Assembly (NCBI GenBank): GCA_035759745.1
Contig: DASTUF010000068.1
Location: forward strand, 20,935-84,934
Direction of reading: 5' to 3'
DNA from: Gemmatimonadales bacterium
Lineage (GTDB): Bacteria > Gemmatimonadota > Gemmatimonadetes > Gemmatimonadales > GWC2-71-9
DNA: 64,000 bases
Both the position numbers and the translations under genes were made by a program. The notes under the pieces were generated by a model that ran no database searches, was not told where the DNA came from, and saw only the letters and a list, made by a program, of their open reading frames with translations. Below are positions 40,491 through 61,999 of this stretch, in pieces; the first letter of the stretch is position 1, and the number at the start of each line of letters is the position of its first letter.

Positions 40491-41618
40491 TCAGCGCACC
40501 TTGAGTGTCGCGAATGCGACCAGCGCGCAGAGGATCCCGATGATGTAGAATCGGGTCACGACCGTCGTCTCGGCCCAGCCGAGCTTCTCGAAGTGGTGAT
40601 GCAGTGGCGCCATCCGGAAGACCCGGTGCGCATCGGCGTATTCCTTGCCGCGGGTACGCTTGCGCCACCGGTACACCGACGTCTGCATCATCACCGACGT
40701 CGCCTCCGCCGCGAAGACGCCGCCGATGATCAGCAGCAGGAACTCCGCCTTGAGCACGATCGCCACTGTGCCGAGCGCGCCGCCGATGGCCAGGCTCCCC
40801 GTGTCACCCATGAAGACCTGGGCCGGATGGGCGTTGAACCAGAGGAAACCCAGACATGCCCCCATGAGCGCGGCACAGAAGATCGACAACTCTCCGGCGC
40901 CGGGCAGGTGAAACAGGAACAGGTATTCGGTCAGGTCCACCCGGCCCAGCAGGTAGGCAAACACCGCGAAGGCCAGCGCCGCGACGGCAGCCAGTCCGGC
41001 GGCGAGCCCGTCCAGTCCGTCGGTGAGGTTCACGGCGTTGCTGCTGCCGGTGATCACCAGCGTCACGAAGAGCACGAACAGCCACGGCGCGAAGTTGACC
41101 ACGAGGTACTTGAAGAATGGCAGGGTCGTCGCCGTCGCCGGAAGGATCGTCTCCGGCGCCACTGGCCGGGCCAGCAGCAGCAGGCCGAGGCACAGGCCGA
41201 AGCCGCACTGCCCCGCCAGCTTCCACTTCGCGACCAGTCCGCGCGACTTGCCCTGCACGATCTTGAGATAATCGTCCAGAAAACCGATCGCTCCCATCCA
41301 CAGGAGCGCCAGCAGCGCCACCAGCACGAAGCGGTTGTCGAGCTGGGCCCAGAGCAACGTCGGAATGACGGTGGCGAGCAGGATGATCAGCCCGCCCATG
41401 GTGGGCGTGCCCCGCTTGGCCTGGTGGCTGGCCGGTCCCTCGGCGCGAATCACCTGTCCCACCTTGTGCGCCCGCAGCCGGCGGATGACGCCCGGTCCCG
41501 CGATGAACGCGATCAGCAACGCCGTCACCACCGCGCCGGCCGCACGGAAGCTGATGTAGTTGAACAGATTGAAGAAGATGTGATTCTTGCCGAGCGGGGC
41601 GAGCAGGTAATAGAACAT
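40491..41618 (-). CDS. mraY: Phospho-N-acetylmuramoyl-pentapeptide transferase
   Basis: 375 aa. Motifs KRGTPTMGGL, NAVNLTDGLDGLA, HHHFE. Confidence 0.97.
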   Translation of the reverse strand: MFYYLLAPLGKNHIFFNLFNYISFRAAGAVVTALLIAFIAGPGVIRRLRAHKVGQVIRAEGPASHQAKRGTPTMGGLIILLATVIPTLLWAQLDNRFVLVALLALLWMGAIGFLDDYLKIVQGKSRGLVAKWKLAGQCGFGLCLGLLLLARPVAPETILPATATTLPFFKYLVVNFAPWLFVLFVTLVITGSSNAVNLTDGLDGLAAGLAAVAALAFAVFAYLLGRVDLTEYLFLFHLPGAGELSIFCAALMGACLGFLWFNAHPAQVFMGDTGSLAIGGALGTVAIVLKAEFLLLIIGGVFAAEATSVMMQTSVYRWRKRTRGKEYADAHRVFRMAPLHHHFEKLGWAETTVVTRFYIIGILCALVAFATLKVR

Positions 41619-44424: not shown

Positions 44425-46394
44425 CAGTCGTCGGCGTTGCCGAGGAGAAGCTCGACTGTGCTGCCCCGCGCTACCTGTCGGCCCGCTTCCGGTGACGTGC
44501 GAAGCGCCGATCCACCCCTGCCGCGCAGCCGTACCCGCAAGCCGTTCTGATGCAGCAACGCGACAGCCGCACGCACGCCCCTGCCGCCAACCTCGGGCAC
44601 GACCGGACGCGACGGAGTGCTGTCGGTGGCGCGCTGCGGCCACGGAAGACCGACAATCACCGGCGGCTCGGGCGGCGGCGCCGGTGGATCCGGCAGCCGC
44701 ACCACACCAGTGGATGCCAGCCGGTTCAGCTGCAGGGCATCATTGCGGGAGGCGAGCGCCTCTTCCAGGATCTCGCGGGTCAGCGGTGCCGCCGTCAGCC
44801 CGCCGAAGTAGCTGCCTTCACTGGGATTGTCGATCTTCACCACCGCCACCAGTTGGGGATCGTCGGCCGGCCAGATCGAGGCGAACGAGGCGGTATACTC
44901 GCCCGGCACGTAGCTGCCGCCCCGCGCTACCTGGGCCGTGCCGGTCTTGCCGATCAGTTCGTAGTTCTGGATCTGTCCCAGCTCGCCGGTGCCAGCCTCA
45001 CCCACCGCGCCGCGCAGGTAGCGCCGCAGCGTCTGCGCCACCTCCACCGGGATGACGCGGCGCACCGGCTCGGGGTCGTGGCGGTACACCACCCGCCCGC
45101 CGGGCGCCTCGATCCGCTTCACCAGCGTCGGTGCGTACAGCGTGCCGCCATTGGCGATGACAGCGTACGCCGAGGCCAGCTGGACCGCGGTCACTGAAAA
45201 GCTATAGCCCCGCGACAGGCTCTCGAGGGTCAGCTCGGGCTCCCACGCAGCCGGCATCGGCAAGCTGCCCCGGGACTCCGCACCGGCGGGCACCACGCCG
45301 GTGTAGGTGCCGAAGCCGAAGTCCCGGAGCGCGGCGTACAGCTCCCTGGGCTCGAGTCGCCTGGCAAACTTGGCCATCCCGATATTGCTCGAGACTTCCA
45401 CCGCGTGCGCCAGTGTGAGCGGCTCTTCCGACACGTGTTCGTCGGTGATGGTGTACGGCACCGCCAAGGGCGGGTCGATCCGCCACGTGCCGTTCTCGGC
45501 CGAGACGGTATCGGTGCTGTCCACCCTGTCCTCCCGAAGCAGCGCCGCGGCGGTGAAGAGCTTCACGGTGGAGCCTGGCTCGAACGGCGCGCTGAACGCG
45601 GCCGAACTGGGGCGCTCGCCCTCCTGCCGCGATGCCACCGCGAGCAGCTCGCCGCTGTTGGGGTCGAGAAAGACTATGTCGCCTGCCCTGGCATCCATCT
45701 GCACCAGCGCCTCGTCGAGCGCCCGCTCGGCAATCTCCTGCAGCCGTGCATCAATGGTGAGGTACACGTCGTGGCCGGGCACCGGATGACTGACCAGGCG
45801 CGAAGGCGACTCGAACCGCTGACCCCCGATGTCGCGCAGCACCACGGCCTCGCCCGGCGTTCCCCGGAGCAGCGAATCGAGTGCGCTCTCTATACCGGAC
45901 TTGCCGATCTCCGCCTCGGGGTCGAAGACGCCCAGCATCGGCGCGGCGAAGTCGCCACCATAGCGCAGCCGCCGCTGCAGCGGCTCGAGATGCACGCCCG
46001 CGACGTCGCGCAAGGGCTGCACCTGCGATGCCGTGTACGGGCCGTGGCGATATACCGAGAGCCGTCCCGACGCGAGTTCGCGGGCGAGCCCCGCGGGCGC
46101 CTCCCCCAGTGCGCGGCCCACCACGCGCGCCGTGGCACGCGGGTCACGCACCTGTTCCGGCGCGATGGAGAGATGATACTGCTCCTGCGATACCACCAGC
46201 GGCTCGCCCGACCGGTCGTAGATGGTGCCGCGGCGGGCAGGCATGACCACGGTGGTGGTGCGCTGGCGTGCCGCGCGCTCGGCGAACTCGTCCCCGCGCA
46301 CCAGCTGCAGCTGCGCGGCCCGGGCGAGGATGCTGAGCATGCCGAGACCGAGGCAGAACTGGATGAATCCGGTGCGAACGGCAGGCTTGGCCAT
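44424..46394 (-). CDS. ftsI: Peptidoglycan D,D-transpeptidase FtsI (class B PBP) with a C-terminal PASTA domain
   Basis: 656 aa. N-terminal TM segment, SxxK (GSTVK), SxN and KTG (GKTGTA). The last ~59 aa (VVPEVGGRGVRAAVALLHQNGLRVRLRGRG...GSTVELLLG) fit the PASTA pattern. Confidence 0.9.
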   Translation of the reverse strand: MAKPAVRTGFIQFCLGLGMLSILARAAQLQLVRGDEFAERAARQRTTTVVMPARRGTIYDRSGEPLVVSQEQYHLSIAPEQVRDPRATARVVGRALGEAPAGLARELASGRLSVYRHGPYTASQVQPLRDVAGVHLEPLQRRLRYGGDFAAPMLGVFDPEAEIGKSGIESALDSLLRGTPGEAVVLRDIGGQRFESPSRLVSHPVPGHDVYLTIDARLQEIAERALDEALVQMDARAGDIVFLDPNSGELLAVASRQEGERPSSAAFSAPFEPGSTVKLFTAAALLREDRVDSTDTVSAENGTWRIDPPLAVPYTITDEHVSEEPLTLAHAVEVSSNIGMAKFARRLEPRELYAALRDFGFGTYTGVVPAGAESRGSLPMPAAWEPELTLESLSRGYSFSVTAVQLASAYAVIANGGTLYAPTLVKRIEAPGGRVVYRHDPEPVRRVIPVEVAQTLRRYLRGAVGEAGTGELGQIQNYELIGKTGTAQVARGGSYVPGEYTASFASIWPADDPQLVAVVKIDNPSEGSYFGGLTAAPLTREILEEALASRNDALQLNRLASTGVVRLPDPPAPPPEPPVIVGLPWPQRATDSTPSRPVVPEVGGRGVRAAVALLHQNGLRVRLRGRGGSALRTSPEAGRQVARGSTVELLLGNADD

Positions 46395-46690
46395 CAGCGG
46401 GGCCGCGTGGTGTCGGGAGCGGGCAGTGGCAGGAAGGTTATCTCGGCGCCAGTGGCCGGGCGGAGCCCCAGGCGTTCGGCGGCACGGCCGATGGCCGCGC
46501 GCCCCGCAGCTTCGTTGATGCCACGCTGCAGGTCGGCGGCCACCGCCTCGAGCGCCTCACGGTCGCTCCGGGCGTTGTCGAGCTCGCGGGCGAGCTGATA
46601 CGACCTGGTGCCGCGCGACAGGATGATCGTCGCGACCGCGAGGAACGCGAAGAGCCACAGCACCAGCCAGTGTCTACCCCTGATCTGCAT
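46394..46690 (-). CDS. ftsL: Cell division protein FtsL-like (single TM plus coiled coil)
   Basis: MQIRGRHWLVLWLFAFLAVATIILSRG..., then a coiled-coil-like region. Its position between rsmH and ftsI supports the call. The start could also be the GTG at 46720. Confidence 0.6.
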   Translation of the reverse strand: MQIRGRHWLVLWLFAFLAVATIILSRGTRSYQLARELDNARSDREALEAVAADLQRGINEAAGRAAIGRAAERLGLRPATGAEITFLPLPAPDTTRPR

Positions 46691-47591
46691 CGGCTTTCCT
46701 GAAGATCCGAAGCCGGGCACTGCGCGCCCGGGGGTTGGCCGCGATCTCGTCGTCGCCCGCGGTGATGGCCTTGTGGGGTCGAGCCCGGCCCAGCGGCTTC
46801 CGGCCGCAGGTGCAGACCGGCTGGCGCGGGGGACAGATGCAACCCCGCTCCCATTCGCGGAAAAGTGTCTTGACGAGGCGGTCCTCGCCTGAATGATAGC
46901 TGATCACGGCCAGAGAACCGCCTGGCACAAGCGCCTCGAACATCGCTGGAAGCGCCCGGGCCAGGCCACCCAGCTCGTCGTTGACTGCGATGCGGAGAGC
47001 CTGGAACAGGCGGGCGAAATCACCGGGGCCCGATCGCGGCCCCAGCACGGCACGGATCGCATTCACGAAGTCGTCGCTGATCCGGTACTCGCCTCGCGCC
47101 CGGCGGCGTACCACTTCTCGGGCGAGACGGCGCGCGCGCCGTTCGTCGCCGTACTCCCGGAACACCCGCTCCAGCTCCGGCTCAGGAGCCGCGTTGAGCA
47201 GCTCGGCTGCGGTCTCGCCGGCCCGGCTCATGCGCATGTCGAGCATGGCACCGGGCCGGAAGGTGAAGCCGCGATCCTCCTGGTCCAGCTGTGCGCTGCT
47301 GACACCGAGGTCGAGCAGGACCAAGTCGGGACGGAAGTCAGCGATGGCCTCGAGCGCGCGGTCGGCGGCGTACGGCGATTCGAGGAAGGTCACGTTGCCG
47401 CCGCCCAGCCTGGCGCCGGCACGCTGCAGTGCCGACGGGTCGCGATCAATGGCCAGCAGCGTCACTCCGCGACCGAGCAGCGCCTCGGCGTGGCCGCCGT
47501 CGCCCACGGTGGCGTCCACTACGCGCGTGGCCCCCTGCGCTGCCGCGAGGACGGCGTCGAGCAGCACCGGGACGTGATAGGCGAGGGTCAT
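46674..47591 (-). CDS. rsmH: 16S rRNA (cytosine1402-N4)-methyltransferase
   Basis: Start taken at the ATG at 47589-47591 (MTLAYHVPVLLDAVL...DATVGDGGHAEALL). Motifs DLGVSSAQLD and SYHSGEDRLVK. Confidence 0.95.
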   Translation of the reverse strand: MTLAYHVPVLLDAVLAAAQGATRVVDATVGDGGHAEALLGRGVTLLAIDRDPSALQRAGARLGGGNVTFLESPYAADRALEAIADFRPDLVLLDLGVSSAQLDQEDRGFTFRPGAMLDMRMSRAGETAAELLNAAPEPELERVFREYGDERRARRLAREVVRRRARGEYRISDDFVNAIRAVLGPRSGPGDFARLFQALRIAVNDELGGLARALPAMFEALVPGGSLAVISYHSGEDRLVKTLFREWERGCICPPRQPVCTCGRKPLGRARPHKAITAGDDEIAANPRARSARLRIFRKADADQG

Positions 47592-47608
47592 GGCAGGTCC
47601 GGGATGCT

Positions 47609-47643
47609 GGAAACACAACACCCCGTCCGGCAGGGACGGGGTG
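47609..47643 (-). terminator. Intrinsic-terminator-like hairpin downstream of tRNA-Asp, immediately upstream of rsmH
   Basis: The minus strand reads CACCCCGTCC-CTGCC-GGACGGGGTG followed by TTGTGTTTCC. This is a 10-bp perfect GC-rich stem with a 5-nt loop and a U-rich tail. Confidence 0.6.
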
Positions 47644-49946: not shown

Positions 49947-50951
49947 CTACTCACTCGGCGGGACTCGGTCAAGTTCTGCAAGGGCTTCCGGGGACGGTAT
50001 TTCCCAGCCCTCGTCGAGCGCCTCCCGGCGCGGAAGGTCCTGGCGCCGCCGGAACCAGGCTGCTGCCATCACGGCTGCCGCCATCACCACCCAGAAGCCG
50101 CCGGCCACCATCCAGGTAAGCAGCCCATAGCGTCGGCGCACGTCTCGCCGCCAGGCTGCCGCAAACTGGCCCGGGTTGAGCCCGGTGCTGCGCCGGACAG
50201 CATCGCGCCAAGGTACACCCTGCCGCAACAGCTCCAGCAGTGGAGCCAGCGACCCCGTCGGGTGCCGTCGCGCCAGGTCGAGTACGGCGCTGGTCGCCAG
50301 TGCGTACGACGCCTCGGCAGCAGCGGGCCCGGCGCGGAGCGTGGAATCAAGCTGGTCGAGCTCGGGGACTGCGCCACGGAGTACCGAGACGTTGAGCGCG
50401 AGCCCGTCGAGGCGGGACCACTCTCCCGCCGCGTACGAGGCGTATCCCTCCTCGAACCAGCGAGGCATCCGGGTGCGGACCGCACGCCGGAGCGCAAGGT
50501 GGGCCAGTTCGTGGCGCAGGGTACCCGCGGGATCGCCGGCGTCGGTGCGGATGACTATCGTCCTGCTCCCCGGCAGGGCGACGCCCGCGCCCCATGCTGG
50601 CGCCCGGCCCCCGGTCATCCGCTGCAGCGCGTCTACATCCGGCACCACGATCAGCCGAATCGGGCCCGGGTCCTGGCGCCCCAGGCCGGGCCAGGTGGCG
50701 GGCATATCCGCGATTTCGCCGAGGGTGGTGGCCAGGCTCATTTGTTCGGGCCAGGCCACCACCGTTACCTGTCCTACGATGGCAACGTCCGGCCGGCCAG
50801 GATCGGTTCCCTGCAAGCCCAGCAGGAACAGGAGTAGGGTCAGGCGGACTGACGTCGCGGTATGTCCCCTCCGCTGGCGACCAGATCCAGCATCTCCTTG
50901 CAGCGCTTGCCATGGGGGCTGAGCCGGTTGGCCCGCCAGCCCTCGCCCCAC
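49947..50951 (-). CDS. Putative zinc metallopeptidase (HExxH) with a C-terminal TM segment
   Basis: 334 aa. HELAHLAL followed 17 residues later by EEGYASY (a gluzincin-like third ligand). Hydrophobic LTLLLFLLGL near the N-terminus, and WMVAGGFWVVMAAAVMAAAW near the C-terminus. The only in-frame start upstream of the first hydrophobic segment is the GTG at 50951, which overlaps the upstream gene by 112 nt. Confidence 0.6.
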   Translation of the reverse strand: MGRGLAGQPAQPPWQALQGDAGSGRQRRGHTATSVRLTLLLFLLGLQGTDPGRPDVAIVGQVTVVAWPEQMSLATTLGEIADMPATWPGLGRQDPGPIRLIVVPDVDALQRMTGGRAPAWGAGVALPGSRTIVIRTDAGDPAGTLRHELAHLALRRAVRTRMPRWFEEGYASYAAGEWSRLDGLALNVSVLRGAVPELDQLDSTLRAGPAAAEASYALATSAVLDLARRHPTGSLAPLLELLRQGVPWRDAVRRSTGLNPGQFAAAWRRDVRRRYGLLTWMVAGGFWVVMAAAVMAAAWFRRRQDLPRREALDEGWEIPSPEALAELDRVPPSE

Positions 50952-51712
50952 GACTCGAGCGCTGCATCGCGGTCATCGGCGAGCCACTGGGCTCGCCCCA
51001 GTTCGTACCAGGCCTCGATCATGTTGGGCCCCAGCGCCAGCGTCTTCCGGAAGAAGCTCTGCGCATCGACGTACATCTCGCGCTCCAGATAGACCAGCCC
51101 GAGGTAGAAATGAGCGTATAGTGTGGCCTTGCGGTCGTTGTCCAGGCGGATGGCGCGCGAAAGGTGCTCGATGGCCTCGCCGAAGATCCGCTTCTTGAGG
51201 CAGATGTAGCCAACGTTGATCCGGGCGAGCGCGTTGGACGGCTCGCGCATGAGGACGCGGGAGAAGGTGGAGAGTGCCTCGTCGTACTGCTCCGCGTGCA
51301 TCTGGGCCCAGCCAAGGAGCGATTGGGCCTCGGTTGCGTCGGGAGAGAGCGCCAGCGCCTTCTCCAGCACCTGGATGGCCGAGGCGTACTCGCCCAGCGA
51401 AATCAGGCTCCAGCCCTTCTCGATGAAGGTGGAGGCCCCGATATGGTCGGCATGCACCGCTGGAGCCGAGCCCGGGAGTCGCGGGCCGGCGTCGGCATCC
51501 GCGGCCGCCATGGTCTGCTTGTACCCGTCCACCAGCGTTCGGATGCTCTCCTTGATCTCGCCCATCTCGACCAGCGTCGCATCCACGTCCTTGAACAGGG
51601 CGATGATGTCGCGCTTCACCGCTTCGCGATCGGCCGCGCTCGCCGTCGCGGCCAGCCGGGTCTCGATGTCGGCGTAGCGCCGGCGGAAGTCGGCTGCGGC
51701 AGGCTCGGTCAT
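50840..51712 (-). CDS. TPR-repeat protein with an N-terminal coiled-coil region
   Basis: 290 aa. TPR-like units (EYASAIQVLEKALALSPDATEAQSLLGWAQMHAEQYDEALSTFSRVLMREPSN...). Overlaps the cheW stop by 4 nt. Confidence 0.7.
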   Translation of the reverse strand: MTEPAAADFRRRYADIETRLAATASAADREAVKRDIIALFKDVDATLVEMGEIKESIRTLVDGYKQTMAAADADAGPRLPGSAPAVHADHIGASTFIEKGWSLISLGEYASAIQVLEKALALSPDATEAQSLLGWAQMHAEQYDEALSTFSRVLMREPSNALARINVGYICLKKRIFGEAIEHLSRAIRLDNDRKATLYAHFYLGLVYLEREMYVDAQSFFRKTLALGPNMIEAWYELGRAQWLADDRDAALESWGEGWRANRLSPHGKRCKEMLDLVASGGDIPRRQSA

Positions 51713-52173
51713 CGGGCCAGCCGCTCCAGCTCGACCCGCTCGGTCGAGTTGAACAATCGGCGGGCGTTGAGCAGCAGCAGCACCCGCTCGCCCACGGTGG
51801 CAATTCCGGTGATGAACTCCGCCGCCAGGCCCCTCACCATCTCTGGCGGTGCGGCGATGACGCCGGCATCCACGCGCATCACCTCGCGCACTTCGTCCAC
51901 GACGACCCCCACGCCTTCCCCACCCATGGTGATGACGACGATCCGGGTGTCGTCATCCACGGTGGCCGGCAGGCCGAGGCGCTTGCGGAGGTCCACCACC
52001 GGCAGGGCGGATCCATCGTGCTGGACCATCCCCTCGAGGAAGCCGGGAGCACCGGGCAGCGCCGACGGCTGCTGCCACCGGAGGATGCGCTCCACCTGCA
52101 GGATATCGAACGCGAACTCCTGGGTGCCGGTGCGGAACGCGACCAGCTGCACATCATCGCCCGTCATCGTCAC
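51709..52173 (-). CDS. cheW: Chemotaxis coupling protein CheW
   Basis: 154 aa. QLVAFRTGTQEFAFDILQVERIL...PGAPGFLEGMVQHDGSALPVVDLRKRLG...GVVVDEVREV, the canonical CheW pattern. Confidence 0.9.
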   Translation of the reverse strand: MTMTGDDVQLVAFRTGTQEFAFDILQVERILRWQQPSALPGAPGFLEGMVQHDGSALPVVDLRKRLGLPATVDDDTRIVVITMGGEGVGVVVDEVREVMRVDAGVIAAPPEMVRGLAAEFITGIATVGERVLLLLNARRLFNSTERVELERLAR

Positions 52174-52592
52174 AGCATTCCCTCCTCGGCCAGCCTGGCG
52201 CCGAGCAGTGAGAGGTCCAGCAGGGGGATGAGTGAGTCCTCGTACCGCAGCACCGCTCGCGACCAGGGCACTGCCCGGTCAACCGGCACCGCCATCGGGT
52301 CGCCCTCGATCACCAGGTCGGCGTGATCCACCTCGAGGCAGATTCGGCGGCCGTCGGCGTTCAGCACCACGGCCATGGGCGCCGTCGCGGGTTCGGCTCC
52401 GCCGGGCGCCAGCATCCGGGCGAGCGACAACACCGGCACCAACTGGCCCCGGAAGGTCGCGACGCCGACCAGCGACGCCTCTCGGGCCGGGACCGGCGCG
52501 ACGCTGCCGGCGTCCGCCACCAGCTCGAGCTCGCGCACGGGAAGCCCGAAGGCACGGCCACCCGCATGGACCAGGAGGAACGATTCACTCAC
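52170..52592 (-). CDS. CheW-like domain protein (second, divergent)
   Basis: 140 aa. [21 protein letters not shown]...[27 protein letters not shown]... Confidence 0.75.
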
Positions 52593-53668
52593 GCGGCCGC
52601 CATGCGGCTGAGCCGCTCGGCGAGAAACTCGCCGATCCCGGTGATCGACAACTGCACGTCAGCGCCGCCGGCGACCCGGGCGGCGTTGGGCATGCCGTAC
52701 ACTACCGACGTCTCGCGGTCCTGGGCCACGCCAAGTCCGCCCGCTTCACGGACGGCGCGCATGCCTTCCGCACCATCCTTGCCGATTCCGGTCAGCACCA
52801 CCGCGATGGCGTGCCGTCCATAGCTGGCGGCGACACTGCGGAACAGCGGATCCGCTGCGGGGCGCACTCCCCAGACCGGCGCCGAGCGGTCGAGCAGGAG
52901 CGCCGGGCCGTCGCTCCGGCGCGCCACCGTCATATGGTAGTCACCAGGCGCCACGTATGCCGTGTCCTCCAGCAGCGGGGTCGCGTGCTCGGCTTCCACC
53001 ACCCGAACCATGCTCTGCGCGGCGAGCCGCTCGGCGAGGGTGCGGGTGAACCGGGGTGGCATGTGCTGCACGATGAGCACCGCGGCGCCCAGGCCCGTGG
53101 GCAGCCGAGGCACCACCTCCATAAGGGCGCGGGGCCCGCCGGTAGAGGCAGCGATCGCTACCACCCGGCGAGCGCGGTCCGGCAGGACGCCAAAACCGCC
53201 CGACTGCATCGGCGGCCGATGGGGGCGCGCGAGCGGGGCCAGGCGGAAGAGTTCGGCATGCTGGGCCGCGCGCAGCGCCGTGAGCACCCGCTGCCCCAGC
53301 CGCTCGACATTCTCCCGGCTCCGTCCCTCATCCTTGGCGACGAGGTCAACGGCACCGAGTTCAAGCGCCCGAATGGCACCGGCGGTGCCCGGCCCCGCGT
53401 ACGCGCTGACCACCACCACCGGCCGGGGGGCTTCGGACATGATGTACCCGATGGCAGCGAGCCCGTCGAGCTCCGGCATCTCGAGGTCCATCAGCACCAG
53501 GTCCGGCGCGAGCGCGTGCACCTTCTCGATCGCGTCCTGGCCGTTCCGCGCGGTGCCCGCGACGGTGAAGTCGCCCGACTGCTGCACCGCCTCCGCCAGC
53601 AGCCGGCGAAAGAACGGGCTGTCGTCGACGATCAGGACCGTGCGGGGGCTAGAGTTCGCGGTTGCCAT
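52589..53668 (-). CDS. cheB: Chemotaxis response regulator protein-glutamate methylesterase CheB
   Basis: 359 aa. Receiver domain ([14 protein letters not shown]...[14 protein letters not shown]), then the methylesterase domain ([26 protein letters not shown]). Confidence 0.95.
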
Positions 53669-54134
53669 GCGCCACCGAAGAGACTATCACGCTCCCGTCC
53701 GCAATGGTGAATGTTACCGTCCGGCCGAAGTCACCGCCTACCGCCTCGCCCATGATCGGAATCTCGTGCTGCAGCAGCACGGTGCGGGTAGCGACCAGAT
53801 TGCGCTCGCCCATCTGGATGGTCCCGGGTGACGCCAGGTTGGCGAACATGCTCGCCCCACCGGCGAGCCGGGCCTGGATCCGGCGGCGGTCGGCGCCGAG
53901 CTCGGTCATCGCGGCGAGCATCGCCGGGATCGCGGTCTGCGGCACCCGCGCCGGGCGATGCGTGGTGGATCGTGCCAGCGCCGGCGTCGGGAGCAGCACA
54001 TGCGCCAGGCCGCCCACGCGCGACACCGCATCGTGCAGCACGATGGCCACGCAGCTCCCCAGGCCGACCGTGACCAGCGTGGTGCCGGCGGTCGCGGCGC
54101 GAAGTTCGGCCACGCGCACGAAGAGCTTGCTCAC
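53649..54134 (-). CDS. cheD: Chemoreceptor glutamine deamidase CheD
   Basis: 161 aa. [14 protein letters not shown]...GLAHVLLP...KLAGGASMF-type pattern ([10 protein letters not shown] here). Confidence 0.9.
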
Positions 54135-54949
54135 GCGGCCCGCCGGTAGATGCGCTCGCGGGTGTCGATCAGGGTGAGCCGTTCGCGGGCGCTGCCGAGC
54201 AGGGTTTCCACTTTCCCCAGTACCAGCAGTCCCCCGGGCGAGAGGTGACCGGCAAAGGTCTCGAACAGACGCTCCTGCATCGGCCGATCGAAATAGATGA
54301 CGACATTGCGGCAGCAGATGAGATCGTACACCGGCCGCAGCGGCTGCTCGCGGGCGAGGTCAAGCCGGGTCACATGCACCAGCCGCCGAAGTTCGGCTCG
54401 GACCTGTCGGCCGGTCGGTGTCTCGACGGTCCACCGCGTCACGAAGGCAGGTGGCGTCTCCTGGAATGCCTCGGCCCGGTACTCACCAGCTGCGGCGCGC
54501 TCCAGCGACGCGCGGTCGACATCGGTGGCGTCAATCTCCAGCCGCCCCAGCCAGTCGGCGTGCCCCGCGTTCGCCGCCAGCTCGGCGACGATCATCGCGA
54601 TGGTGTATGGCTCTTCCCCCGATGCGCAGCCCGCGCTCCACACCCGCAGGGCGCCCTCGCGCCCCGACCACAATGCCGGCAGCGGACCGGTGCGAAGTGC
54701 GTCCCAGGTCTCCGGGTTCCGGTAGAAGCGGGTGACATTGATGGTGAGGGCATCCTGCAACCGGTGCAGCTCGTCCGCGTTCCGGTCCAGGAAGTCGAGA
54801 TACTCGTCGTAGCTGGCCGCACCGCAGGCGCGCATCCGCACGGCGATGCGCCGGCGGAGGCACTTGTCCTTGTACACCTCGAGGGACATGCCCGACGCGG
54901 CGGAGAGGCGGCGGGTGAGCCGCTCGAACTCGACATCGCGGTCGGTCAC
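54131..54949 (-). CDS. cheR: Chemotaxis protein-glutamate O-methyltransferase CheR
   Basis: 272 aa. Motifs TINVTRFYRNPETWDAL, RVWSAGCASGEEPYTIAM and LICCRNVVIYFD. Confidence 0.95.
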   Translation of the reverse strand: MTDRDVEFERLTRRLSAASGMSLEVYKDKCLRRRIAVRMRACGAASYDEYLDFLDRNADELHRLQDALTINVTRFYRNPETWDALRTGPLPALWSGREGALRVWSAGCASGEEPYTIAMIVAELAANAGHADWLGRLEIDATDVDRASLERAAAGEYRAEAFQETPPAFVTRWTVETPTGRQVRAELRRLVHVTRLDLAREQPLRPVYDLICCRNVVIYFDRPMQERLFETFAGHLSPGGLLVLGKVETLLGSARERLTLIDTRERIYRRAA

Positions 54950-56565
54950 GAGGCAGCATCCAGCAGGTCGAGATTGGCACGGGCCAGCTGATGGGCCGGG
55001 TTGAGTTCGGTGGCCCGGAGCCAGCGTTCGCGGGCGCGCACCGTCTCGCGCCGCTTGAAGGCGATGTTGCCCAGCTTGAAGTAGACGTCGTCGCCCAGGT
55101 CCGGCGCGAGCTTCAGCGCCCGCTCGTACGCGTCGGACGCCTCATCGTAGCGGCCCGAGCGATAGCAGATGTCGGCGAGGTTCTTCCACAGCTGCGGCAA
55201 GGCTGGCTCATCCTCGAGCGCGGCGCGCAGCAGGCGTTCCGCCTCCTCGACATGGCCGCCGGCCTCCAGCAATACAGCCAGCGCGTTCCTGAGGATGGCA
55301 CTGCCCGGATGGGCCTCGACTCCGGCGCGGGCGGTCTCGCGTGCGGCGTCGGACCGGTCCGCAACCGCATGCGCCAACGAGGCGGCCCAGAACCAGACGG
55401 CCGGCACCGGGCGCTGTCCCAGGAGCTCCCGGGCGCGCTGCAGCCGCTCCAGCGCCTGGGCATGGTCACCGCGCTTGAGGGCAATGATGCCCCAGCCCAG
55501 CTGGATGCGCGGCTCGTCCCGGGCCCGGGCCGCCGCATCGGCATAGGCGGCCTCGGCCTCCTCCAGCCGGTCGAGACGTTCGAGCGCGTAGGCCAGGTTG
55601 TGAAGCGCCGCGGGCCGGGGGCCTCCCTTCTCGATCACCTCGCGCAGGATGTCGACCGCATCGGTCCAGCGCGCCTGGCACAGCGCGATCAGCCCCAGGT
55701 GAAAGGGCGCAGCGGCCTCAGAGGGGCGCAGGTCGGCCACCCGCCGGAACTCGCGTTCGGCTTCGTCCAGCATTCCGGTGCGGAAGAAGGCCACGCCGAG
55801 GTTGCGGTGCTCTTCGACCCTCGCATCGGTGGCACGCGGCGCGGACGACGCGGTCGATGAGCCGACCCGGTGCGCGAAGCCGGCGGTGATGAGGCCGTAC
55901 AGGGCCTTGCCGGTCTCGAACTCCACCAGGCCCGACTCCTCCATGACCTGCCGGACATCGCGGGTGCCATCGAGCAGCGGCAGTATCTGGCTCTGCGCGG
56001 CGCTCAACGTGACATCCGACTCGGCCATCCGGTCGGGCTCGACCCGGAACTGCAAGTCAAAGGACGGAATCTTCCGCGTGATCAGTTCCCACTCGTCCAC
56101 CCGTCGGGCTCCTTCGAGCAGCAGGCTCTCCGGGTTGATGGACACGAGGAAGTCCTCGCGTTCGGGCCGCACGCCGGCTTCGAAGTTGAAGGTCCCGCTG
56201 TTCCAGGTGAAGAGGAAATACACCGCCTCCTCGATCTGGACCCGCATGTAGTCCTCGAGCTCCTGGCGAGTGAGCGCGCCTGCTTCCACCAGCAGCTCGC
56301 CGATCTTCTGCTCCGGGGACTGCGCCTGCGCGTCCACGGCCCGCTGCAGCACCTCCGGCGCGAGCCGGCCGCTTCGCACCAGCAGGTCACCCAGGCGGTC
56401 GCGCCGGTTGACGATCGAGGCGTAGATCAGCCGGCCCTCATCGAAGTAGATGTAGCCGAAGTTCTGGCGATCGGCGATCGACAGGCATCCCGAGCGGCGC
56501 CCCAGCGTGAGCAGCTGGATGACGTCCGGCAAGCTGGCTTCCTTGAGGCTGCCCTTGATGGCCAT
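54946..56565 (-). CDS. PATAN/DUF4388-domain protein with a helical insert and a C-terminal TPR array
   Basis: Start at the ATG at 56563-56565 ([50 protein letters not shown]...), abutting the upstream stop. The G.L...SL.DV.QLL...SG.L...G.IYF..G pattern is the DUF4388 signature as I recall it. The C-terminal ~300 aa are TPR repeats. Confidence 0.75.
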   Translation of the reverse strand: MAIKGSLKEASLPDVIQLLTLGRRSGCLSIADRQNFGYIYFDEGRLIYASIVNRRDRLGDLLVRSGRLAPEVLQRAVDAQAQSPEQKIGELLVEAGALTRQELEDYMRVQIEEAVYFLFTWNSGTFNFEAGVRPEREDFLVSINPESLLLEGARRVDEWELITRKIPSFDLQFRVEPDRMAESDVTLSAAQSQILPLLDGTRDVRQVMEESGLVEFETGKALYGLITAGFAHRVGSSTASSAPRATDARVEEHRNLGVAFFRTGMLDEAEREFRRVADLRPSEAAAPFHLGLIALCQARWTDAVDILREVIEKGGPRPAALHNLAYALERLDRLEEAEAAYADAAARARDEPRIQLGWGIIALKRGDHAQALERLQRARELLGQRPVPAVWFWAASLAHAVADRSDAARETARAGVEAHPGSAILRNALAVLLEAGGHVEEAERLLRAALEDEPALPQLWKNLADICYRSGRYDEASDAYERALKLAPDLGDDVYFKLGNIAFKRRETVRARERWLRATELNPAHQLARANLDLLDAAS

Positions 56566-58550
56566 CAGCGCCACTCCTCGATCAGGCGCGCCGGCACCTC
56601 GGGCCACTCCCAGACCATCTTCTCCCGGCTGCGTATGCCACCGGCCACCAGCGGCGTGACGCCATTGGTGCGGGGCTGCACCGTGCGACGGGCGGCGCCG
56701 GTGGAGGAGCCATCGAGCACCTCACGCGCCAGCACCGCGCTCGCTGCCACACCCTTCGCCTCGGCTGCCTGAAGTACGCGCTGGACCGTGCCAAGCGCCG
56801 CGCGGAACGACTCGGCCGGGCGGCTGCCGATAACCCCCGGCAGCTCGGGGTCCACCTGCTCGAGCCGGGCCGACAGGTGTCGCTCGGCAACGCGCTGGCG
56901 CAGGTCGCGGTCCGGCTGCGGCAACTCGACCACCAGGCCCCCCTCGAACCGGGTCAGCAGCCGAGGCGCCATGCCGGACAGCTCGGCCAGCGGCACGCCG
57001 GTGGTGAACACCATCTGCCGGCCGTGGTCATGGAACTCGTTGAACAGCAGGAAGAGTTCCTCCTGCGAGCGTTCCTTGTCCGCGAGCAGGTGGACATCGT
57101 CGATCAGCAGCGCATCGGCCCGGCGCCAGCGCGCCCGCCAGCGGGGGACCGCGTCCTGGTCGATCGCCGCGATCAGCTCCTCCACGAATTCGTGCGCCCC
57201 AACGCACGCGACCGTTAATCCCGCGGCCGCAAGCGCGTTGCCCACGCCATGCAGGACATGGGTCTTGCCATTGCCGCTGGCGGCGCTGATCAGCAGCGGG
57301 TTGTAGCGGGTGCCGGGCTCGGCCGCGACCGCGCGTGCGGCGCGCACCGCCACACGATTGGCCGGGCTTTCGAGCAGATCATCGAGCAGCCAGTGGGGTG
57401 ACGGCGGCGAGGGCGGTTCGAGGCCCTCGCGCGCACGCTCCAGCAGGGAGGCGGCGGCCTCGACCCGGTCCGGGTCCCGCAGCGCCTGATCGCCAGCGAG
57501 GTCGGGTGCCACCCGCTCGAGGTCCTCCGCGATCTGCTGCAGCCGCCTCACGTCCGTCGCGAATGCGGCGAGCGCTCCGTCCGGATCCTGCGGCAGCGCG
57601 CCATTGTCCAGCAGTTTCTCGAGCCGGGTGGTGCGGAAGCCTTCGCCGCTCCAGCGCAGCACCGCTTCGGCCACGCGCGACCGCCACGACTCGACCTGCT
57701 GCGTCACCGTGCTCGCGATCTCCTGCAGGAAGTCGGTGAACTCATCCGTCCCGCCTTCCGCATCGTCGGCCGGCGCGCCTCCGCCCGCCGTGCCCTCGAT
57801 AGCCTCGCCGGCCCGGCTCGCAGCGACATCCGCGATGCCCGCGAGCTCGGCCCGCGCCTCCGCCACCGAGAGCGGCCGGCCCGCGGCGGCCTGGGCGGCG
57901 CTGACCCGGTTCAAGGCGCCGAGCAGCTCGCGCACATTGTCGAGCGGGATCTCCGCAGCGGCCTCGAGCACGCCCGGCGCGAGCTCAAGGCCGCGCGCCT
58001 CGGCCTTGCGGCGGAGGATGGCTACGCGGGTTTCGTAGTCCGGCGCGCCGACGTCCACCACCAGCCCGCCACCGAAGCGGCGCAGCAGCCGGTCGTCCAG
58101 CGCCTCGATGTCGGCCGGGGGACGGTCGCTGGCGAGCACGATCTGGCCGCCCGAGGCCTGCATCGCATCCACCACGCGCAGCAACTCGCTCTGCATTTCG
58201 CGGCGACGCGCCAGTGCCTGGACGTCGTCCAGCAGCAGCAGGCCAAGCTCGGAGTAGCGACGGCGGTAGGCATCACCCTGCCCTGCGGTGATGGCCGCAT
58301 GGAAAGCCTCGACGAAGTCGTCGAGTGTCAGGTAGCCGACGGCGAGGCCGGGATTGATGGCGAGTGCCGAGTGGCCGATGGCCGTGAGCAGGTGCGTCTT
58401 GCCCAGCCCCGGTGTGGCATAAATGAAGAGGGGGTTGTAGACCGCACCGGGAGACTCCGCCACGGCACGGGCAGCGGTGGCCGCCAGGCGGTTGCCGGAG
58501 CCGACCACGAACTCCTCGAAGCGGAGCCCCGGATGCAGCTTCTGGTTCAC
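56565..58550 (-). CDS. Tandem DnaA-type AAA+ ATPase (two DnaA domain-III-like modules; no DnaA domains I, II or IV)
   Basis: 661 aa with a GTG start overlapping the mglA stop (GTGA).
- Module 1: [81 protein letters not shown].
- Module 2: [61 protein letters not shown].
No DNA-binding HTH region was seen. Confidence 0.8.
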
Positions 58551-59146
58551 GCCGGCGCCCCTGCCGCGAGGCGACGAAGCACCGACTCGGAGATGCCCTT
58601 CAGCGTCTCGAAGACGCCGCTCCCGTGCAGGGCATCGGCGCCGAAGCTTTGCACGCCGCGGAAGTTCAGCGCCTCATCGAGCGCGTCGCTGGAGAGCACC
58701 AGGTCGGCCGGCAGGTCCTGCTTGTTGTACTGCAGCACGACCGGGAGGTCACGCACATCGACGCCCTGTTCCAGCAGGTTTTCCTGGAGATTCTGGAGGC
58801 TCTCGAGATTGTCGTCGAAGCGGCGGGCCTGGCTGTCGGCCACGAACACCACCCCGTCGGCTCCCTGGAGCACCAGCTTCCGGGTGGCGTTGTAGTAGCT
58901 CTGGCCCGGCACGGTGTACAGCTGGAACCTGGTGGTGAACCCCGAGATCGAGCCGAGGTCGAGGGGCAGGAAATCGAAGAAGAGCGTGCGGTCGCCGTGG
59001 GTCGCGAGCGAGACCATGCGGCCACGCCGGTTCTCCGGCACCCGCCCGAAGATGTACTGCAAGTTGGTCGTCTTGCCGGACCTGCCCGGGCCGTAATAGA
59101 CGATCTTGCAGGTGATCTCGCGGGTGGTGAAGTTGACGAGCGACAT
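58547..59146 (-). CDS. mglA: MglA-family small Ras-like GTPase
   Basis: ATG at 59144-59146 gives [33 protein letters not shown]...[11 protein letters not shown]...[10 protein letters not shown]...VLQYNKQDL. This is near-collinear with Myxococcus MglA as I remember it (P-loop, intrinsic Arg in [13 protein letters not shown], NKxD). Confidence 0.9.
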
Positions 59147-59147
59147 G

Positions 59148-59609
59148 TCAGCGTCCAAAGAGCGCGTGGAGGCTGGCGTTCAGCTCCCGCTCGAAGTTCT
59201 CGGCCAGCACCGGCGCCTGGGTGGTCTCGGGCGGCGCGACGGCCACAAGTTCGCGCACCAGTTCGTCCCAGAAGAGCTGCACCAGCCCGACGCTGGTCTC
59301 GCTGCCGAATACGACCAGGCCGACCCACCGGCCACGTGGCGTGTCGAATCCCGACAGCAGCATGCCCTGCTCACTGCCCTGGTGCACCAGCGCACCGAAA
59401 CCCCGCTGGTCCATGAGCCGGGCCACCTCGGTGGTCGAGGCGACGATGCCAGCACCGAGCGCCGCCGCCGCCATCACGTCCAGCGAGCGGGTGAATCCGT
59501 GCTGGGCCACCACCTGCCCCGCCGACGTCATCAACAGCACCACACGGGCTTCGCTCTCCGCGAGGAAGTGTTCCAGCGGCGGACCCACCCAGGGCTCGAG
59601 GGTGCGCAT
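59148..59609 (-). CDS. mglB: Roadblock/LC7-domain protein, MglB-like (putative GAP of MglA)
   Basis: Internal ATG at 59607-59609 of track ORF 59148..60209 gives 153 aa: [39 protein letters not shown]...[12 protein letters not shown]..., a Roadblock fold pattern. It sits directly upstream of mglA, as in the mglBA operon. Confidence 0.75.
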
Positions 59610-59959
59610 CAGCCGAGCCCCTGCGCGACGTCGAGCATTTCCAGCCGGGCCAGGCCCAGGTTGGCATCGGCCTGGGTCACTGCGACCACCAGCAGTTCTG
59701 CGGCGGCGGCAGGCACGGCGAGCAGGTTGCCGCGCTCCGCATGCAGGTGCAGCACCCGTGGTGCCTCCAGCCCGGCTTCGGCGGTGGTGCGCGCCAGTCG
59801 ACCCGCAAGACTCGCCGCCAGCGCTGCGACTGCCCGGCCATCCACGCCATCCATCAGCGACTCGGCCACAACCAGTCCGTCGGCCATGGAGACGAGCATC
59901 GCGCCCCGCACGCCGCGCACCGCGCTGATACGCCCAAGTTCGGTTTCGTAGCGACTCAC
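59609..59959 (-). CDS. Roadblock/LC7-domain protein (second paralog)
   Basis: GTG at 59957-59959 overlaps the upstream stop (GTGA). 116 aa: VSRYETELGRISAVRGVRGAMLVSMADGLVVAESL...AALAASLAGRL...NLLAVPAAAAELLVVAVTQADANLG. Confidence 0.7.
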   Translation of the reverse strand: MSRYETELGRISAVRGVRGAMLVSMADGLVVAESLMDGVDGRAVAALAASLAGRLARTTAEAGLEAPRVLHLHAERGNLLAVPAAAAELLVVAVTQADANLGLARLEMLDVAQGLG

Positions 59960-60852
59960 GAGGCCCGCTCCAGCCAGCGTCGCGCAGCAGCAGCGGCGCG
60001 ATCGGCGATGACGGCCAGCCGGCCGGCGGTGACGCTCGCATCGCGCGCCGCGAGGAGTACAGTGTCGGGTGATGGCGCCGCGAGGTGCAGGTTGCCAGGC
60101 CCGCACTCGGCCGACAATCGCTGCCAGTTGCCGAGATCCAGCAGGCGCGCGGCCCGCACCGCCTCTCGCGACACACCGGAGAGGTGCGCCGCCACAGCAT
60201 CGGCGACATCGCGACCGTCGCGATCGCGCAGGCCGCCGCCCAACCGCAGCCCGTTCACGTCGAGCAGCAGGAGACCGTCACGGGCGCCCTCGAATCCCTC
60301 GAACAGTTCTGACTCGGCCGGCAAGTCGTCGTCGGCCTCCTCCTCGAGCTCGAACGGCAGCCCTTTGCGCTGCCGGGGCATCGGCGCGCGGGGCTCGCTG
60401 GAGCGGGCGGACACGGGCGCCGGCGTCTCCTCGGCGCCCGTGGGGGCCGCACCATCCAGCGTGGCGCGCACGGTGGCGATTGCCCGGGCGAGTCCCGGCT
60501 CGTCGCTGCGTGCGCGGGCCATCTCCAGGTGACGCAGCGCGCGGGGCAGGTCACCCGCACGGTAGTAGAGGAATCCGAGGCCCTTGTGGGCGCCGAGATG
60601 GCTGGGATCCCGCTGCAACGCATCCATCCACGCATCGAACGCCGCTTCACCGTCGCCGAGGTCGCTATGGATCCTGGCCGCAAGATCGCGGGCATCGGCG
60701 AGTTCGGGATAACGCGCCATGCCGGACTCGGCCACACGCAGTGCGGCCTGGAACTGTCCCCGCCGGCGCAGAGTCTCCCCCAGGTCGAGGAAGACCAGGC
60801 TCGCCGGATCGGCAACCAGTTCCGCGGTCATGGCGCGGATCGATTCACTCAT
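59956..60852 (-). CDS. TPR N-terminal domain fused to a C-terminal Roadblock/LC7-like domain
   Basis: 298 aa. TPR units at the N-terminus, an acidic linker (PFELEEEADDDLPAESELFEGFE), then GLLLLDVNGLRLGGG...VADAVAAHLSGVSREAVRAARLLDLG..., which resembles Roadblock. The Roadblock assignment is by pattern only. Confidence 0.6.
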   Translation of the reverse strand: MSESIRAMTAELVADPASLVFLDLGETLRRRGQFQAALRVAESGMARYPELADARDLAARIHSDLGDGEAAFDAWMDALQRDPSHLGAHKGLGFLYYRAGDLPRALRHLEMARARSDEPGLARAIATVRATLDGAAPTGAEETPAPVSARSSEPRAPMPRQRKGLPFELEEEADDDLPAESELFEGFEGARDGLLLLDVNGLRLGGGLRDRDGRDVADAVAAHLSGVSREAVRAARLLDLGNWQRLSAECGPGNLHLAAPSPDTVLLAARDASVTAGRLAVIADRAAAAARRWLERAS

Positions 60853-61999
60853 GCGCGTTCCTCATGGCTCGGCCCAGCATCCGCGCCGCCGCGCGGAGTT
60901 CGCTGACCCAGCCCCCCTTCGCATCTTCATCGGCAGGCCGCATCGGCAGCCTGCTCCACGCATCCCAACTGTCCACCGCTTCCTCGAAGCGTCCGTCGCC
61001 GGCCAGCGCCATGCCAAGCAGGCGGCGCGAAGTGGCATCGCCGGGCGCCAGCCGAAGCGCCTGCTCGAGGGCCGCCGCGGCATCGGCCGGCCGGCCGGCC
61101 GCGAGCAGCACCCGTCCCAGCATCAGGTACAGCGACGGGTGCTCGCCCACCGACATGGCAGCGGCCTCCTGCACGGCTGCAAGGGCCTGCTGGGTATTGT
61201 CGGCGATCAGGTACGCTTCCGCCCGCGCCAGCAGGTCGGCCACGTCGCCGCTCTCCGCCTCGGGTTCCGGCAGTGCCCTGGGATCGTCGACCGCCACCAC
61301 GCCTGCGGCGGCGAGGCCGAACAGGGTCCGCGCCACCTCGAACTCGGAACGCGCGACGTGCTCGGCCACCGCGCGGATGTTGCGCTCGCCATCCACCGCC
61401 GCGAGCACTTCCCATTCGGCCGGGAGCAGGTCCATCGGTGCGGCATCGTGCTCGTCCGGCGCAATCAGGCGGGGCACCACATCGAGGTGGGGAATGCGGG
61501 CCTCGATCCGGCTCCACTCGTCGATGCGCCGGGCCGCTTCCATCAGCAGCGCCTCGGTGGGAATGCGCACCACCGCCTGCGCCGGCACATCCTCCAACGG
61601 CGCTTCGCTGAATGAGAAGTGGCCTTCGGCCCAGTTCATCAGCTCGAAGATCACTTCCTCCACCTGCCCCCGGACGTGGCGGTCCAGGTCGCGCTGGCTG
61701 ATGGCACCGATGCTCACCAGCACCTCACCCAGCCGGCGCCCGTCGCCGGTGGCCTGCATGTCGCGAGCCCGCGCGAGGTCCGAGTCGGAAACCTTGCCGA
61801 CCCGCAGCAGCAGCGCGCCGAGCGGGTGCGGATTGCTCTCGATCTCGGCGGCGACCACCTTGCCGCCATCGAAGTACACGGTGCCGCCATTCTGTCGCAG
61901 CTCGGAGCGCACCCGCAGGATGCCCGACTTCCGCGCCAGGTCGAGCAGCTGGAACACATCGTGAATGCCGAGCTCGCGAAGCGGTCCCTCGATCGGCAT
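60845..61999 (-). CDS. PATAN/DUF4388-domain protein with a helical insert and a C-terminal TPR region (second paralog)
   Basis: 384 aa. MPIEGPLRELGIHDVFQLLDLARKSGILRVRSELRQNGGTVYFDGGKVVAAE..., then a winged-helix-like region and TPR-like helices. Confidence 0.75.
   Translation of the reverse strand: MPIEGPLRELGIHDVFQLLDLARKSGILRVRSELRQNGGTVYFDGGKVVAAEIESNPHPLGALLLRVGKVSDSDLARARDMQATGDGRRLGEVLVSIGAISQRDLDRHVRGQVEEVIFELMNWAEGHFSFSEAPLEDVPAQAVVRIPTEALLMEAARRIDEWSRIEARIPHLDVVPRLIAPDEHDAAPMDLLPAEWEVLAAVDGERNIRAVAEHVARSEFEVARTLFGLAAAGVVAVDDPRALPEPEAESGDVADLLARAEAYLIADNTQQALAAVQEAAAMSVGEHPSLYLMLGRVLLAAGRPADAAAALEQALRLAPGDATSRRLLGMALAGDGRFEEAVDSWDAWSRLPMRPADEDAKGGWVSELRAAARMLGRAMRNAHE

Follow-up and report, generated by a model that had tools for sequence, protein, structure and literature searches.

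We analysed a window of 64,000 nucleotides from a Gemmatimonadales bacterium (contig DASTUF010000068.1 of assembly GCA_035759745.1) and focus here on a PATAN-TPR protein encoded on its minus strand, hereafter PATAN-TPR1, and on a helical module within it that is predicted to bind cyclic dimeric guanosine monophosphate (c-di-GMP). The gene occupies 54946..56565, stop codon included, and encodes 539 amino acids (aa) from an ATG at 56565. It lies in a run of genes that also encodes an MglA/Arf-like small GTPase, Roadblock proteins, an AAA+ protein and chemotaxis proteins. The PATAN domain (PF14332, DUF4388/PatA_N), as delimited by Pfam and AlphaFold2 (AF2), covers residues 4-160, helical insertion included (56086..56556, minus strand), and scores 121.4 bits against a curated cut-off of 25 (expectation value (E) 3e-35). 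The C-terminal half consists of TPR repeats recognised by several Pfam TPR families (residues ~250-539; 54949..55818, minus strand). Nested in the PATAN domain, residues 57-110 (56236..56397, minus strand) form, by homology and in structural models, an MshEN_N module, equivalent to the N-subdomain of GSPII domains and to the "alpha-clip", with a predicted site for one c-di-GMP.

The open reading frame (ORF) call in this region spans 54946-56607 and gives 553 aa from a GTG. We dropped the GTG start at 56607 in favour of ATG 56565 because all orthologues begin at the ATG and because it overlaps the upstream stop codon in a TGATG. An identical 539-aa protein with the same start is present on two metagenome contigs, with CheR downstream.

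With this start, translation of the minus strand from 56236 to 56397 gives RLGDLLVRSGRLAPEVLQRAVDAQ-AQSPEQ-KIGELLVEAGALTRQELEDYMRVQ, residues 57-110. A first-pass annotation of the sequence had described two tandem 24-residue MshEN-like motifs at residues 57-80 and 87-110, separated by a 6-residue spacer, and the translation agrees. Motif 1, RLGDLLVRSGRLAPEVLQRAVDAQ (56326..56397), aligns to R9-Q32 of Vibrio cholerae MshE, and motif 2, KIGELLVEAGALTRQELEDYMRVQ (56236..56307), aligns to MshE R38-Q61. The spacer AQSPEQ (residues 81-86; 56308..56325) has the commonest length in the family. The MshEN consensus that the annotation had quoted, RLGxx(L/V/I)(L/V/I)xxG(L/V/I)(L/V/I)xxxxLxxxLxxQ, is the one printed in Wang et al. 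2016 (PMC5013675), and its residue-by-residue listing (R11 and V21 in motif 1; K1, I2 and M21 in motif 2) was correct.

We searched all PDB sequences with a 63-aa segment of the insert using phmmer. The significant matches were MshEN/GSPII domains only: Thermus thermophilus PilF (E 4.4e-11, best stretch residues 302-357), Geobacter PilB (1.7e-4), V. cholerae MshE (5htl; 2e-4) and Myxococcus xanthus PilB (4e-3). The alignments were in register over both motifs, with R57/L58/G59...Q80 on MshE R9/L10/G11...Q32 and K87/I88/G89...Q110 on MshE R38/L39/G40...Q61. A profile built from 56 inserts of diverse PATAN proteins and searched against the PDB found PilF at E 5.8e-35, Geobacter PilB at 3.6e-16, MshE at 3e-15 and c-di-GMP-bound PilF GSPII-B constructs at 1e-9 to 6e-8. 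Its significant matches were exclusively MshEN/GSPII chains; the next match, an unrelated one, came at E 0.48. Across all six-frame ORFs of the window, a pattern of contact and turn positions occurs three times, in both PATAN-TPR1 motifs and in motif 2 of a second PATAN protein, PATAN-TPR2. The 12 ligand-contact and 8 structural positions of PATAN-TPR1 hold the consensus residue or a conservative equivalent. With tandem motifs and significant similarity both in place, residues 57-110 are nearly certainly a homologous MshEN_N module nested in PATAN.

It is scarcely credible that this is a chance likeness between an amphipathic helical segment rich in Leu, Gly and Gln and a loose consensus. The strict consensus is not matched exactly, and Pfam T2SSE_N (PF05157), the profile that the first-pass annotation had proposed as a check, gave no match at E up to 10 with the whole of PATAN-TPR1 or with the insert. 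However, the positive control, residues 1-79 of V. cholerae MshE, also has no PF05157 match and instead matches DUF4388 at 25.6 bits, above the cut-off of 25. The negative T2SSE_N result is therefore uninformative, because MshE 1-79 misses the model too. Against bona fide MshEN domains only, the segment by itself reaches E 4e-11 and the profile 6e-35 to 3e-15. These values, the in-register alignment across both motifs and the structural matches described below led us to reject a chance resemblance.

The supplementary alignment of Wang et al. 2016 (PMC5013675) places the start of the Pfam05157 model in the second half of motif 2. When MshE 1-79 is aligned to the DUF4388 profile, both of its motifs fall on positions 49-74, and MshE scores above the DUF4388 threshold because that model contains one MshEN motif. 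The DUF4388 model thus holds one 24-residue MshEN motif and T2SSE_N misses the ligand-binding part, a coverage that invites mis-annotation in both directions. PATAN-TPR1 does not carry a full MshEN domain (MshEN_N plus MshEN_C/T2SSE_N1): the C-terminal alpha/beta subdomain is absent, and the helices re-enter the PATAN core at strand 124-128. This excludes only the full-domain label, because MshEN_N-only architectures are recognised (Wang et al. 2016, Supplementary Table 4, PMC5013675).

We modelled PATAN-TPR1 residues 1-166 with AF2 from 122 aligned sequences (predicted local distance difference test score (pLDDT) 85.6, predicted template modelling score (pTM) 0.78). Four insert helices (58-64, 70-82, 88-94 and 100-118), paired into two helix-turn-helix hairpins that make up a small bundle, lie between strands 45-51 and 124-128, so the motif pair does sit inside the PATAN helical insertion, as had been claimed. 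Around the insert, the PATAN core is built from strands 27-32, 35-42, 45-51 and 124-128 and helices 12-25 and 145-165. Foldseek against the PDB returned 5htl_B (MshE with c-di-GMP) as the first match of the domain model, with a root-mean-square deviation (rmsd) of 1.2 Å over 56 columns and probability 1.0, and ligand-bound PilF GSPII-B next at 1.3 Å. For an insert-only model (pLDDT 86.7), the query-normalised TM-score (TMq) was 0.75 to 5htl_B and 0.69 to 8pfa_A, and the first 12 structural matches were all MshEN/GSPII domains. Taken together, the models superpose on c-di-GMP-bound MshE and PilF GSPII-B at an rmsd of 1.2-2.0 Å. The four-helix MshEN arrangement, on which the first-pass annotation had staked its reading, is thus seen in the predicted models. 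Helix 1 begins at residue 58, preceded by a non-helical stretch (52-57), and helix 3 begins at residue 88. The AF2 model has no extra capped turn on helix 1 like the one that blocks PilF GSPII-A, which, as a prediction, is favourable to binding.

Conservation was examined at two levels. The orthologue-level set holds 122 sequences, namely 121 orthologues at 66-81% identity and the paralogue PATAN-TPR2. Within it, G59, L103 and Q110 never vary, and conservation is 90% or higher at R57, L58, L73, Q80 and G89. An exhaustive search for PATAN relatives returned 12,283 50%-identity cluster representatives at E up to 1e-3; from the best 150 of these we took the 144 complete PATAN domains, a sample biased toward relatives of PATAN-TPR1. 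Motif 1 retains R1 in 118 of the 144, L2 in 113, G3 in 132, L6 in 136, G10 in 114, L17 in 119 and Q24 in 107. For motif 2, the counts are R/K1 94, L/I/V2 132, G3 124, L6 133, G10 115, L17 113 and Q24 131. Few positions in these domains vary less than the contact positions. Scoring R/K1, L/I2, G3, L17, a hydrophobic residue at 21 and Q24 in each motif, with conservative classes allowed, 57/144 domains keep all 12 contact positions and 106/144 keep at least 5 of 6 in both motifs; PATAN-TPR1 scores 6/6 in each.

Spacers of 6 residues are found in 84 of the 144 inserts, of 5 in 24 and of 7 in 21. In 62/144, motif 1 has R or K at position 11, the position at which motif 1 of PATAN-TPR1 violates the relaxed pattern of Wang et al. 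Because R or K there breaks the relaxed PHI-BLAST pattern of the published census, PATAN proteins may be under-counted in it. XpsE and PilF GSPII-A keep the MshEN fold, have lost contact positions and do not bind c-di-GMP (PMC5013675, PMC12002112), so the fold does not need the contact residues. As a separate observation, three relatives of about 1,450-1,490 aa (P0128, P0135 and P0147) carry five PATAN domains per chain, each matching the full 166-aa query with its insert.

Characterised MshEN domains bear on the departures from the consensus in PATAN-TPR1. Work on PilF widened position 1 to (R/K/L)LG... (PMC11731258), and K87 fits because this extended consensus allows K. PilF GSPII-B, with K at position 1, binds c-di-GMP with nanomolar affinity (PMC11731258). 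PilF GSPII-C (residues 304-476) binds with a dissociation constant of ~0.3-0.5 µM; its position 11 is K and its motifs are 7 residues apart (PMC11731258), which answers the concerns raised by R67 and by the 6-residue spacer.

MshE (V. cholerae, PDB 5HTL; PMC5013675) resembles PATAN-TPR1 in its two tandem 24-residue motifs, its four-helix unit and its in-register alignment. In contrast to MshE, the module of PATAN-TPR1 lies inside PATAN instead of at the N-terminus, is followed by neither MshEN_C (T2SSE_N1) nor an ATPase, has a spacer of 6 instead of 5 residues, and carries R11, V/M21 and, in motif 2, K1 and I2. The best sequence match of the insert is PilF GSPII-C, residues 302-358 (PDB 6F8L and 8PDK for GSPII-C and GSPII-B; PMC11731258), which shares with it K/R at position 11 and a spacer longer than 5. 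The PilF GSPII domains differ in being tandem N-terminal modules of a pilus ATPase, each with a C-terminal subdomain of its own that touches the ligand, a place occupied in PATAN-TPR1 by the PATAN core.

Parts of this picture are already known. As relayed by Han et al. 2021 (bioRxiv 10.1101/2021.06.11.447907), Makarova, Koonin, Haselkorn and Galperin in 2006 described, under the name "alpha-clip", a small insertion in PATAN in which a pair of antiparallel helices occurs twice, and linked it to the N-termini of secretion and pilus ATPases. On that account, their alpha-clip is the same feature as the PATAN-TPR1 insert and was described before c-di-GMP binding by MshEN was known, so the homology between insert and ATPase is older than the MshEN c-di-GMP discovery. 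Wang et al. 2016 list M. xanthus MXAN_3211 as a predicted binder with a motif from residue 50, and MXAN_1145 as a predicted non-binder (Supplementary Table 3, PMC5013675). The Sogaard-Andersen laboratory has termed MXAN_3211 a PATAN-domain protein, and its fragment matches DUF4388 weakly in Pfam. The architecture table of Wang et al. has no PATAN-nested form; it has a separate MshEN-HD-GYP-REC-DUF4388 fusion (PMC5013675). Known already, then, are the homology of the alpha-clip to ATPase N-termini, the presence of MshEN_N modules in many architectures, and the listing of a PATAN protein as MshEN. What is new here is PATAN-TPR1 as a candidate c-di-GMP receptor, nominated from sequence and models, in an MglA-like GTPase/Roadblock/Che cluster of Gemmatimonadota.

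Bd2402 of Bdellovibrio bacteriovorus offers a precedent for a motif pair in this context. Rotem et al. 2016, as cited in Wang et al. 2016 (PMC5013675), report it as a tight c-di-GMP binder, and Wang et al. label it "REC-MshEN_N-UNK", with PATAN unrecognised. The 77-aa fragment printed in the 2016 supplement had no match in our protein collection, and we took the gene from genome contigs. The orthologue in a B. bacteriovorus genome (L004:2386-4311, 642 aa) is 100% identical over the published fragment. It has a receiver (REC) domain at residues 8-122, a DUF4388 match at 164-287 when that region is searched in isolation (E 1.9e-5, 25.1 bits) and weak C-terminal TPR matches. BLASTP against the PATAN domain of the window gives E 6e-6, with an alignment that runs from the N-terminal strands into the motifs. 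Compared with the orthologue alignment by hhalign, Bd2402 scores E 4.5e-5 (98 columns, probability 69%).

By its sequence, Bd2402 is a REC domain followed by PATAN with a nested motif pair and a TPR-like tail, parallel to PATAN-TPR1. The motif pair begins about 50 residues into the PATAN domain in Bd2402 and MXAN_3211, as in PATAN-TPR1. Bd2402 differs from PATAN-TPR1 in having an added receiver and a poorer motif pair: position 1 is F, the motifs are 3 residues apart, and in motif 2 position 10 is N. Neither it nor MXAN_3211 lies within the Gemmatimonadota gene cluster described here. On the published account of its binding, this precedent raises our confidence that the nested context allows binding.

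From homology, fold and conservation we infer that the PATAN-TPR1 module probably binds c-di-GMP in the manner of MshE, and sequence and models together make the protein a credible candidate c-di-GMP sensor; none of the computational tests able to refute this reading did so. The analysis shows the homology, the predicted fold, how far the residues are conserved and how the operon is built, whereas ligand binding, the placing of the site relative to the PATAN core and any downstream effect are proposals drawn from these. One extended c-di-GMP monomer would be bound, as it is by MshE and PilF GSPII-B/C, with each 24-residue motif holding one guanine. The position-1 side chains, R57 and K87, would stack on the bases, and hydrophobic triads would span the motifs, L58 with L103/M107 and I88 with L73/V77. 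At the N-terminal ends of the helices, the free amides of the G59-D60 and G89-E90 backbone would contact the base, and Q80 and Q110 would reach the ribose and phosphate. In MshE the C-terminal subdomain abuts the ligand; by analogy, the site here would be placed next to the PATAN core, at the entry and exit of the insert. If so, occupancy would alter how the scaffold engages the GTPase, Roadblock and AAA+ proteins or a motility machine, and the c-di-GMP level would thereby be coupled to polarity and chemosensory output.

Several observations weigh against c-di-GMP binding by PATAN-TPR1. Both motifs depart from the published consensus, strict or extended, with R at 11, V and M at 21 and I at 2. 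PilF GSPII-A is homologous and has one near-perfect motif, yet it does not bind (PMC12002112). Its failure has been put down to a degenerate second motif, an extra helix-1 turn stabilised by an N-cap, and inter-subdomain contacts, and binding did not return when the consensus alone was restored (PMC12002112). PilF GSPII-A thus shows that motif similarity is insufficient for c-di-GMP binding. The structural match rests on predicted models, and its E-values in Foldseek (0.05-0.8) are weak owing to the shortness of the unit, ~55 residues. Nesting in PATAN could also bury the binding face. We found no open-access paper in which a PATAN domain is stated, or tested, to bind c-di-GMP. Counts published in 2025, co-authored by Galperin, give Nostoc one MshEN protein and Synechocystis three; the PatA-type PATAN regulators of the latter number six (Han et al. 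2021, bioRxiv 10.1101/2021.06.11.447907), so that PATAN regulators seemingly were not counted as MshEN. The account of Bd2402 in Wang et al. 2016 has, as far as it goes, no mapping of its binding to the motif pair. Lastly, a six-frame regular-expression search for GGDEF, EAL and HD-GYP motifs gave only off-frame or trivial occurrences in the window, a weak negative given that the genes at 1-37 kilobases were not run against Pfam.

The main rival reading is that the MshEN_N fold has been retained but no longer binds any nucleotide, and that it offers a rigid surface for protein contacts, for instance with the motor of a pilus or secretion system, with the GTPase or with the AAA+ protein. PATAN-TPR1 would then be likened to XpsE, Pseudomonas aeruginosa PilB and PilF GSPII-A, whose N-termini do not bind, and many MshEN domains are predicted non-binders. 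Among the deleterious changes listed for XpsE is R at position 11, the motif search of the window gave no c-di-GMP turnover gene, and the cyanobacterial PATAN regulators bind PilB1 or PilC with no known ligand requirement, the alpha-clip having been proposed there as an interaction module. We consider this reading somewhat unlikely. R/K1, G3 at the free helix end and Q24 are conserved in both motifs like a structural core, which is sensible only for ligand contact, and the characterised non-binders have lost those positions. Moreover, K stands at position 11 in the binder PilF GSPII-C, and Bd2402, with poorer motifs in a PATAN context, is, in the report relayed by Wang et al., a tight binder.

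It is far less probable that the physiological ligand is another cyclic dinucleotide, such as 3'3'-cyclic GMP-AMP (cGAMP). As far as the account in Wang et al. 2016 (PMC5013675) goes, cGAMP binding by MshEN has been reported, and most contacts are hydrophobic or made by backbone amides, so specificity could drift. However, every family member that has been characterised is a receptor for c-di-GMP, the backbone amides to guanine O6/N7 favour guanine, and there was no sign of a cGAMP synthase in the window, where no specific search for one was made.

Beyond this one protein, it is possible, as a tentative extension, that the PATAN class serves as c-di-GMP-gated adaptors, in which the nested MshEN_N senses and the PATAN core with TPR or REC provides output. 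In cyanobacteria, PATAN proteins govern the polarity of phototaxis, and in many phyla they are found beside MglA-like GTPases. The cyanobacterial PatA-type regulators PixG, PixE and LsiR likewise have PATAN with an alpha-clip, act in motility and polarity control and are often encoded beside chemotaxis-like systems. They differ in being PATAN-REC proteins, with PilB1 and PilC binding as their known outputs, whereas PATAN-TPR1 is PATAN-TPR. If the extension holds, PATAN proteins with intact motifs would be a large, under-counted family of c-di-GMP receptors tied to MglA-type GTPases and chemosensory arrays. They might also be principal effectors in phyla like Gemmatimonadota, with many cyclases but no PilZ. 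Gemmatimonas aurantiaca encodes 8 GGDEF, 5 GGDEF+EAL, 2 EAL and 7 HD-GYP proteins (22 turnover proteins), 0 PilZ and 2 MshEN (Wang et al. 2016, PMC5013675), and thus the phylum makes c-di-GMP and few of its receptors are known. Confirmed binding by PATAN-TPR1 would help to close this receptor gap and would connect c-di-GMP to a polarity GTPase and a chemotaxis cluster.

The neighbouring genes form a minus-strand run in which stops and starts overlap. In order of transcription, it comprises a TPR protein (643 aa), PATAN-TPR2, a TPR-Roadblock protein, a Roadblock protein, a 141-aa protein, the small GTPase, the AAA+ protein and PATAN-TPR1, followed by CheR, CheD, CheB, CheW, CheW, a TPR protein (290 aa), a peptidase-MA-like protein and a TPR protein (599 aa), and then the cell-division and cell-wall (dcw) genes. 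The small GTPase (203 aa; 58547..59158, minus strand) is MglA/Arf-like (Pfam Arf, E 3e-7) and has the same position in a related metagenome contig, L003. The segment 59148..60852 (minus strand) encodes TPR-Roadblock (59956-60852), Roadblock/LC7 (~59612-60000) and the 141-aa ORF (59151-59573), in an order kept in L003. CheR, CheD, CheB (REC plus methylesterase) and the two CheW proteins occupy 51709..54949 (minus strand) downstream of PATAN-TPR1, and the CheR start overlaps the PATAN-TPR1 stop by 4 nucleotides. Contig L003 has the same gene order, with CheA, CheW and CheC upstream, beyond the end of the window. The window thus combines PATAN with an MglA-like GTPase, Roadblock and chemotaxis genes. 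Makarova and colleagues reportedly predicted, in 2006, a PATAN neighbourhood with small GTPase, Roadblock/LC7 and chemotaxis genes.

PATAN-TPR2 (384 aa; 60845..61999, minus strand) is a paralogue of PATAN-TPR1, 42% identical to it over the PATAN domain, with DUF4388 at residues 4-163 (E 5e-31) and TPR repeats. Its nested module, PLGALLLRVGKVSDSDLARARDMQ-ATGDGR-RLGEVLVSIGAISQRDLDRHVRGQ (residues 59-112; 61664..61825, minus strand), has a canonical motif 2, the only one of the two to pass the contact-position pattern. The first half-site has P at position 1 and R at 21, and both recur in relatives of PATAN-TPR2, so this site is possibly half-degenerate. Judged by its residues, PATAN-TPR2 appears a weaker c-di-GMP candidate than PATAN-TPR1, and its R21 resembles the L29R change of XpsE. 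The first-pass annotation had further predicted that the operon senses c-di-GMP. That prediction exceeds the data, given the degenerate first half-site of PATAN-TPR2 and a window in which the six-frame motif search gave no cyclase or phosphodiesterase motif in real genes.

Other genes of the run have features of their own. The AAA+ protein (661 aa; 56565..58550, minus strand), whose gene makes the TGATG overlap with PATAN-TPR1 and is translationally coupled to it, matches Bac_DnaA at E 2e-88 in two stretches. It has two DnaA-type AAA+ modules and no match to the DnaA DNA-binding domain, and its place between the GTPase and PATAN-TPR1 is kept in L003. The 141-aa ORF (59151-59573, minus strand) has no Pfam match, and its L003 counterpart (6903-7364, 153 aa) is likewise unmatched; it could be a divergent MglB/Roadblock-like partner. 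Between two TPR genes, a 334-aa ORF (49947-50951, minus strand) has a HELAH motif of zinc-peptidase type and a hydrophobic C-terminal stretch, and its position is that of a Peptidase_MA_2 gene in L003. The cluster adjoins dcw genes at 37963-47621 (minus strand), encoding MraW/RsmH, a penicillin-binding protein (FtsI-like), MurE, MraY, MurD and FtsW, an arrangement that is also kept in L003.

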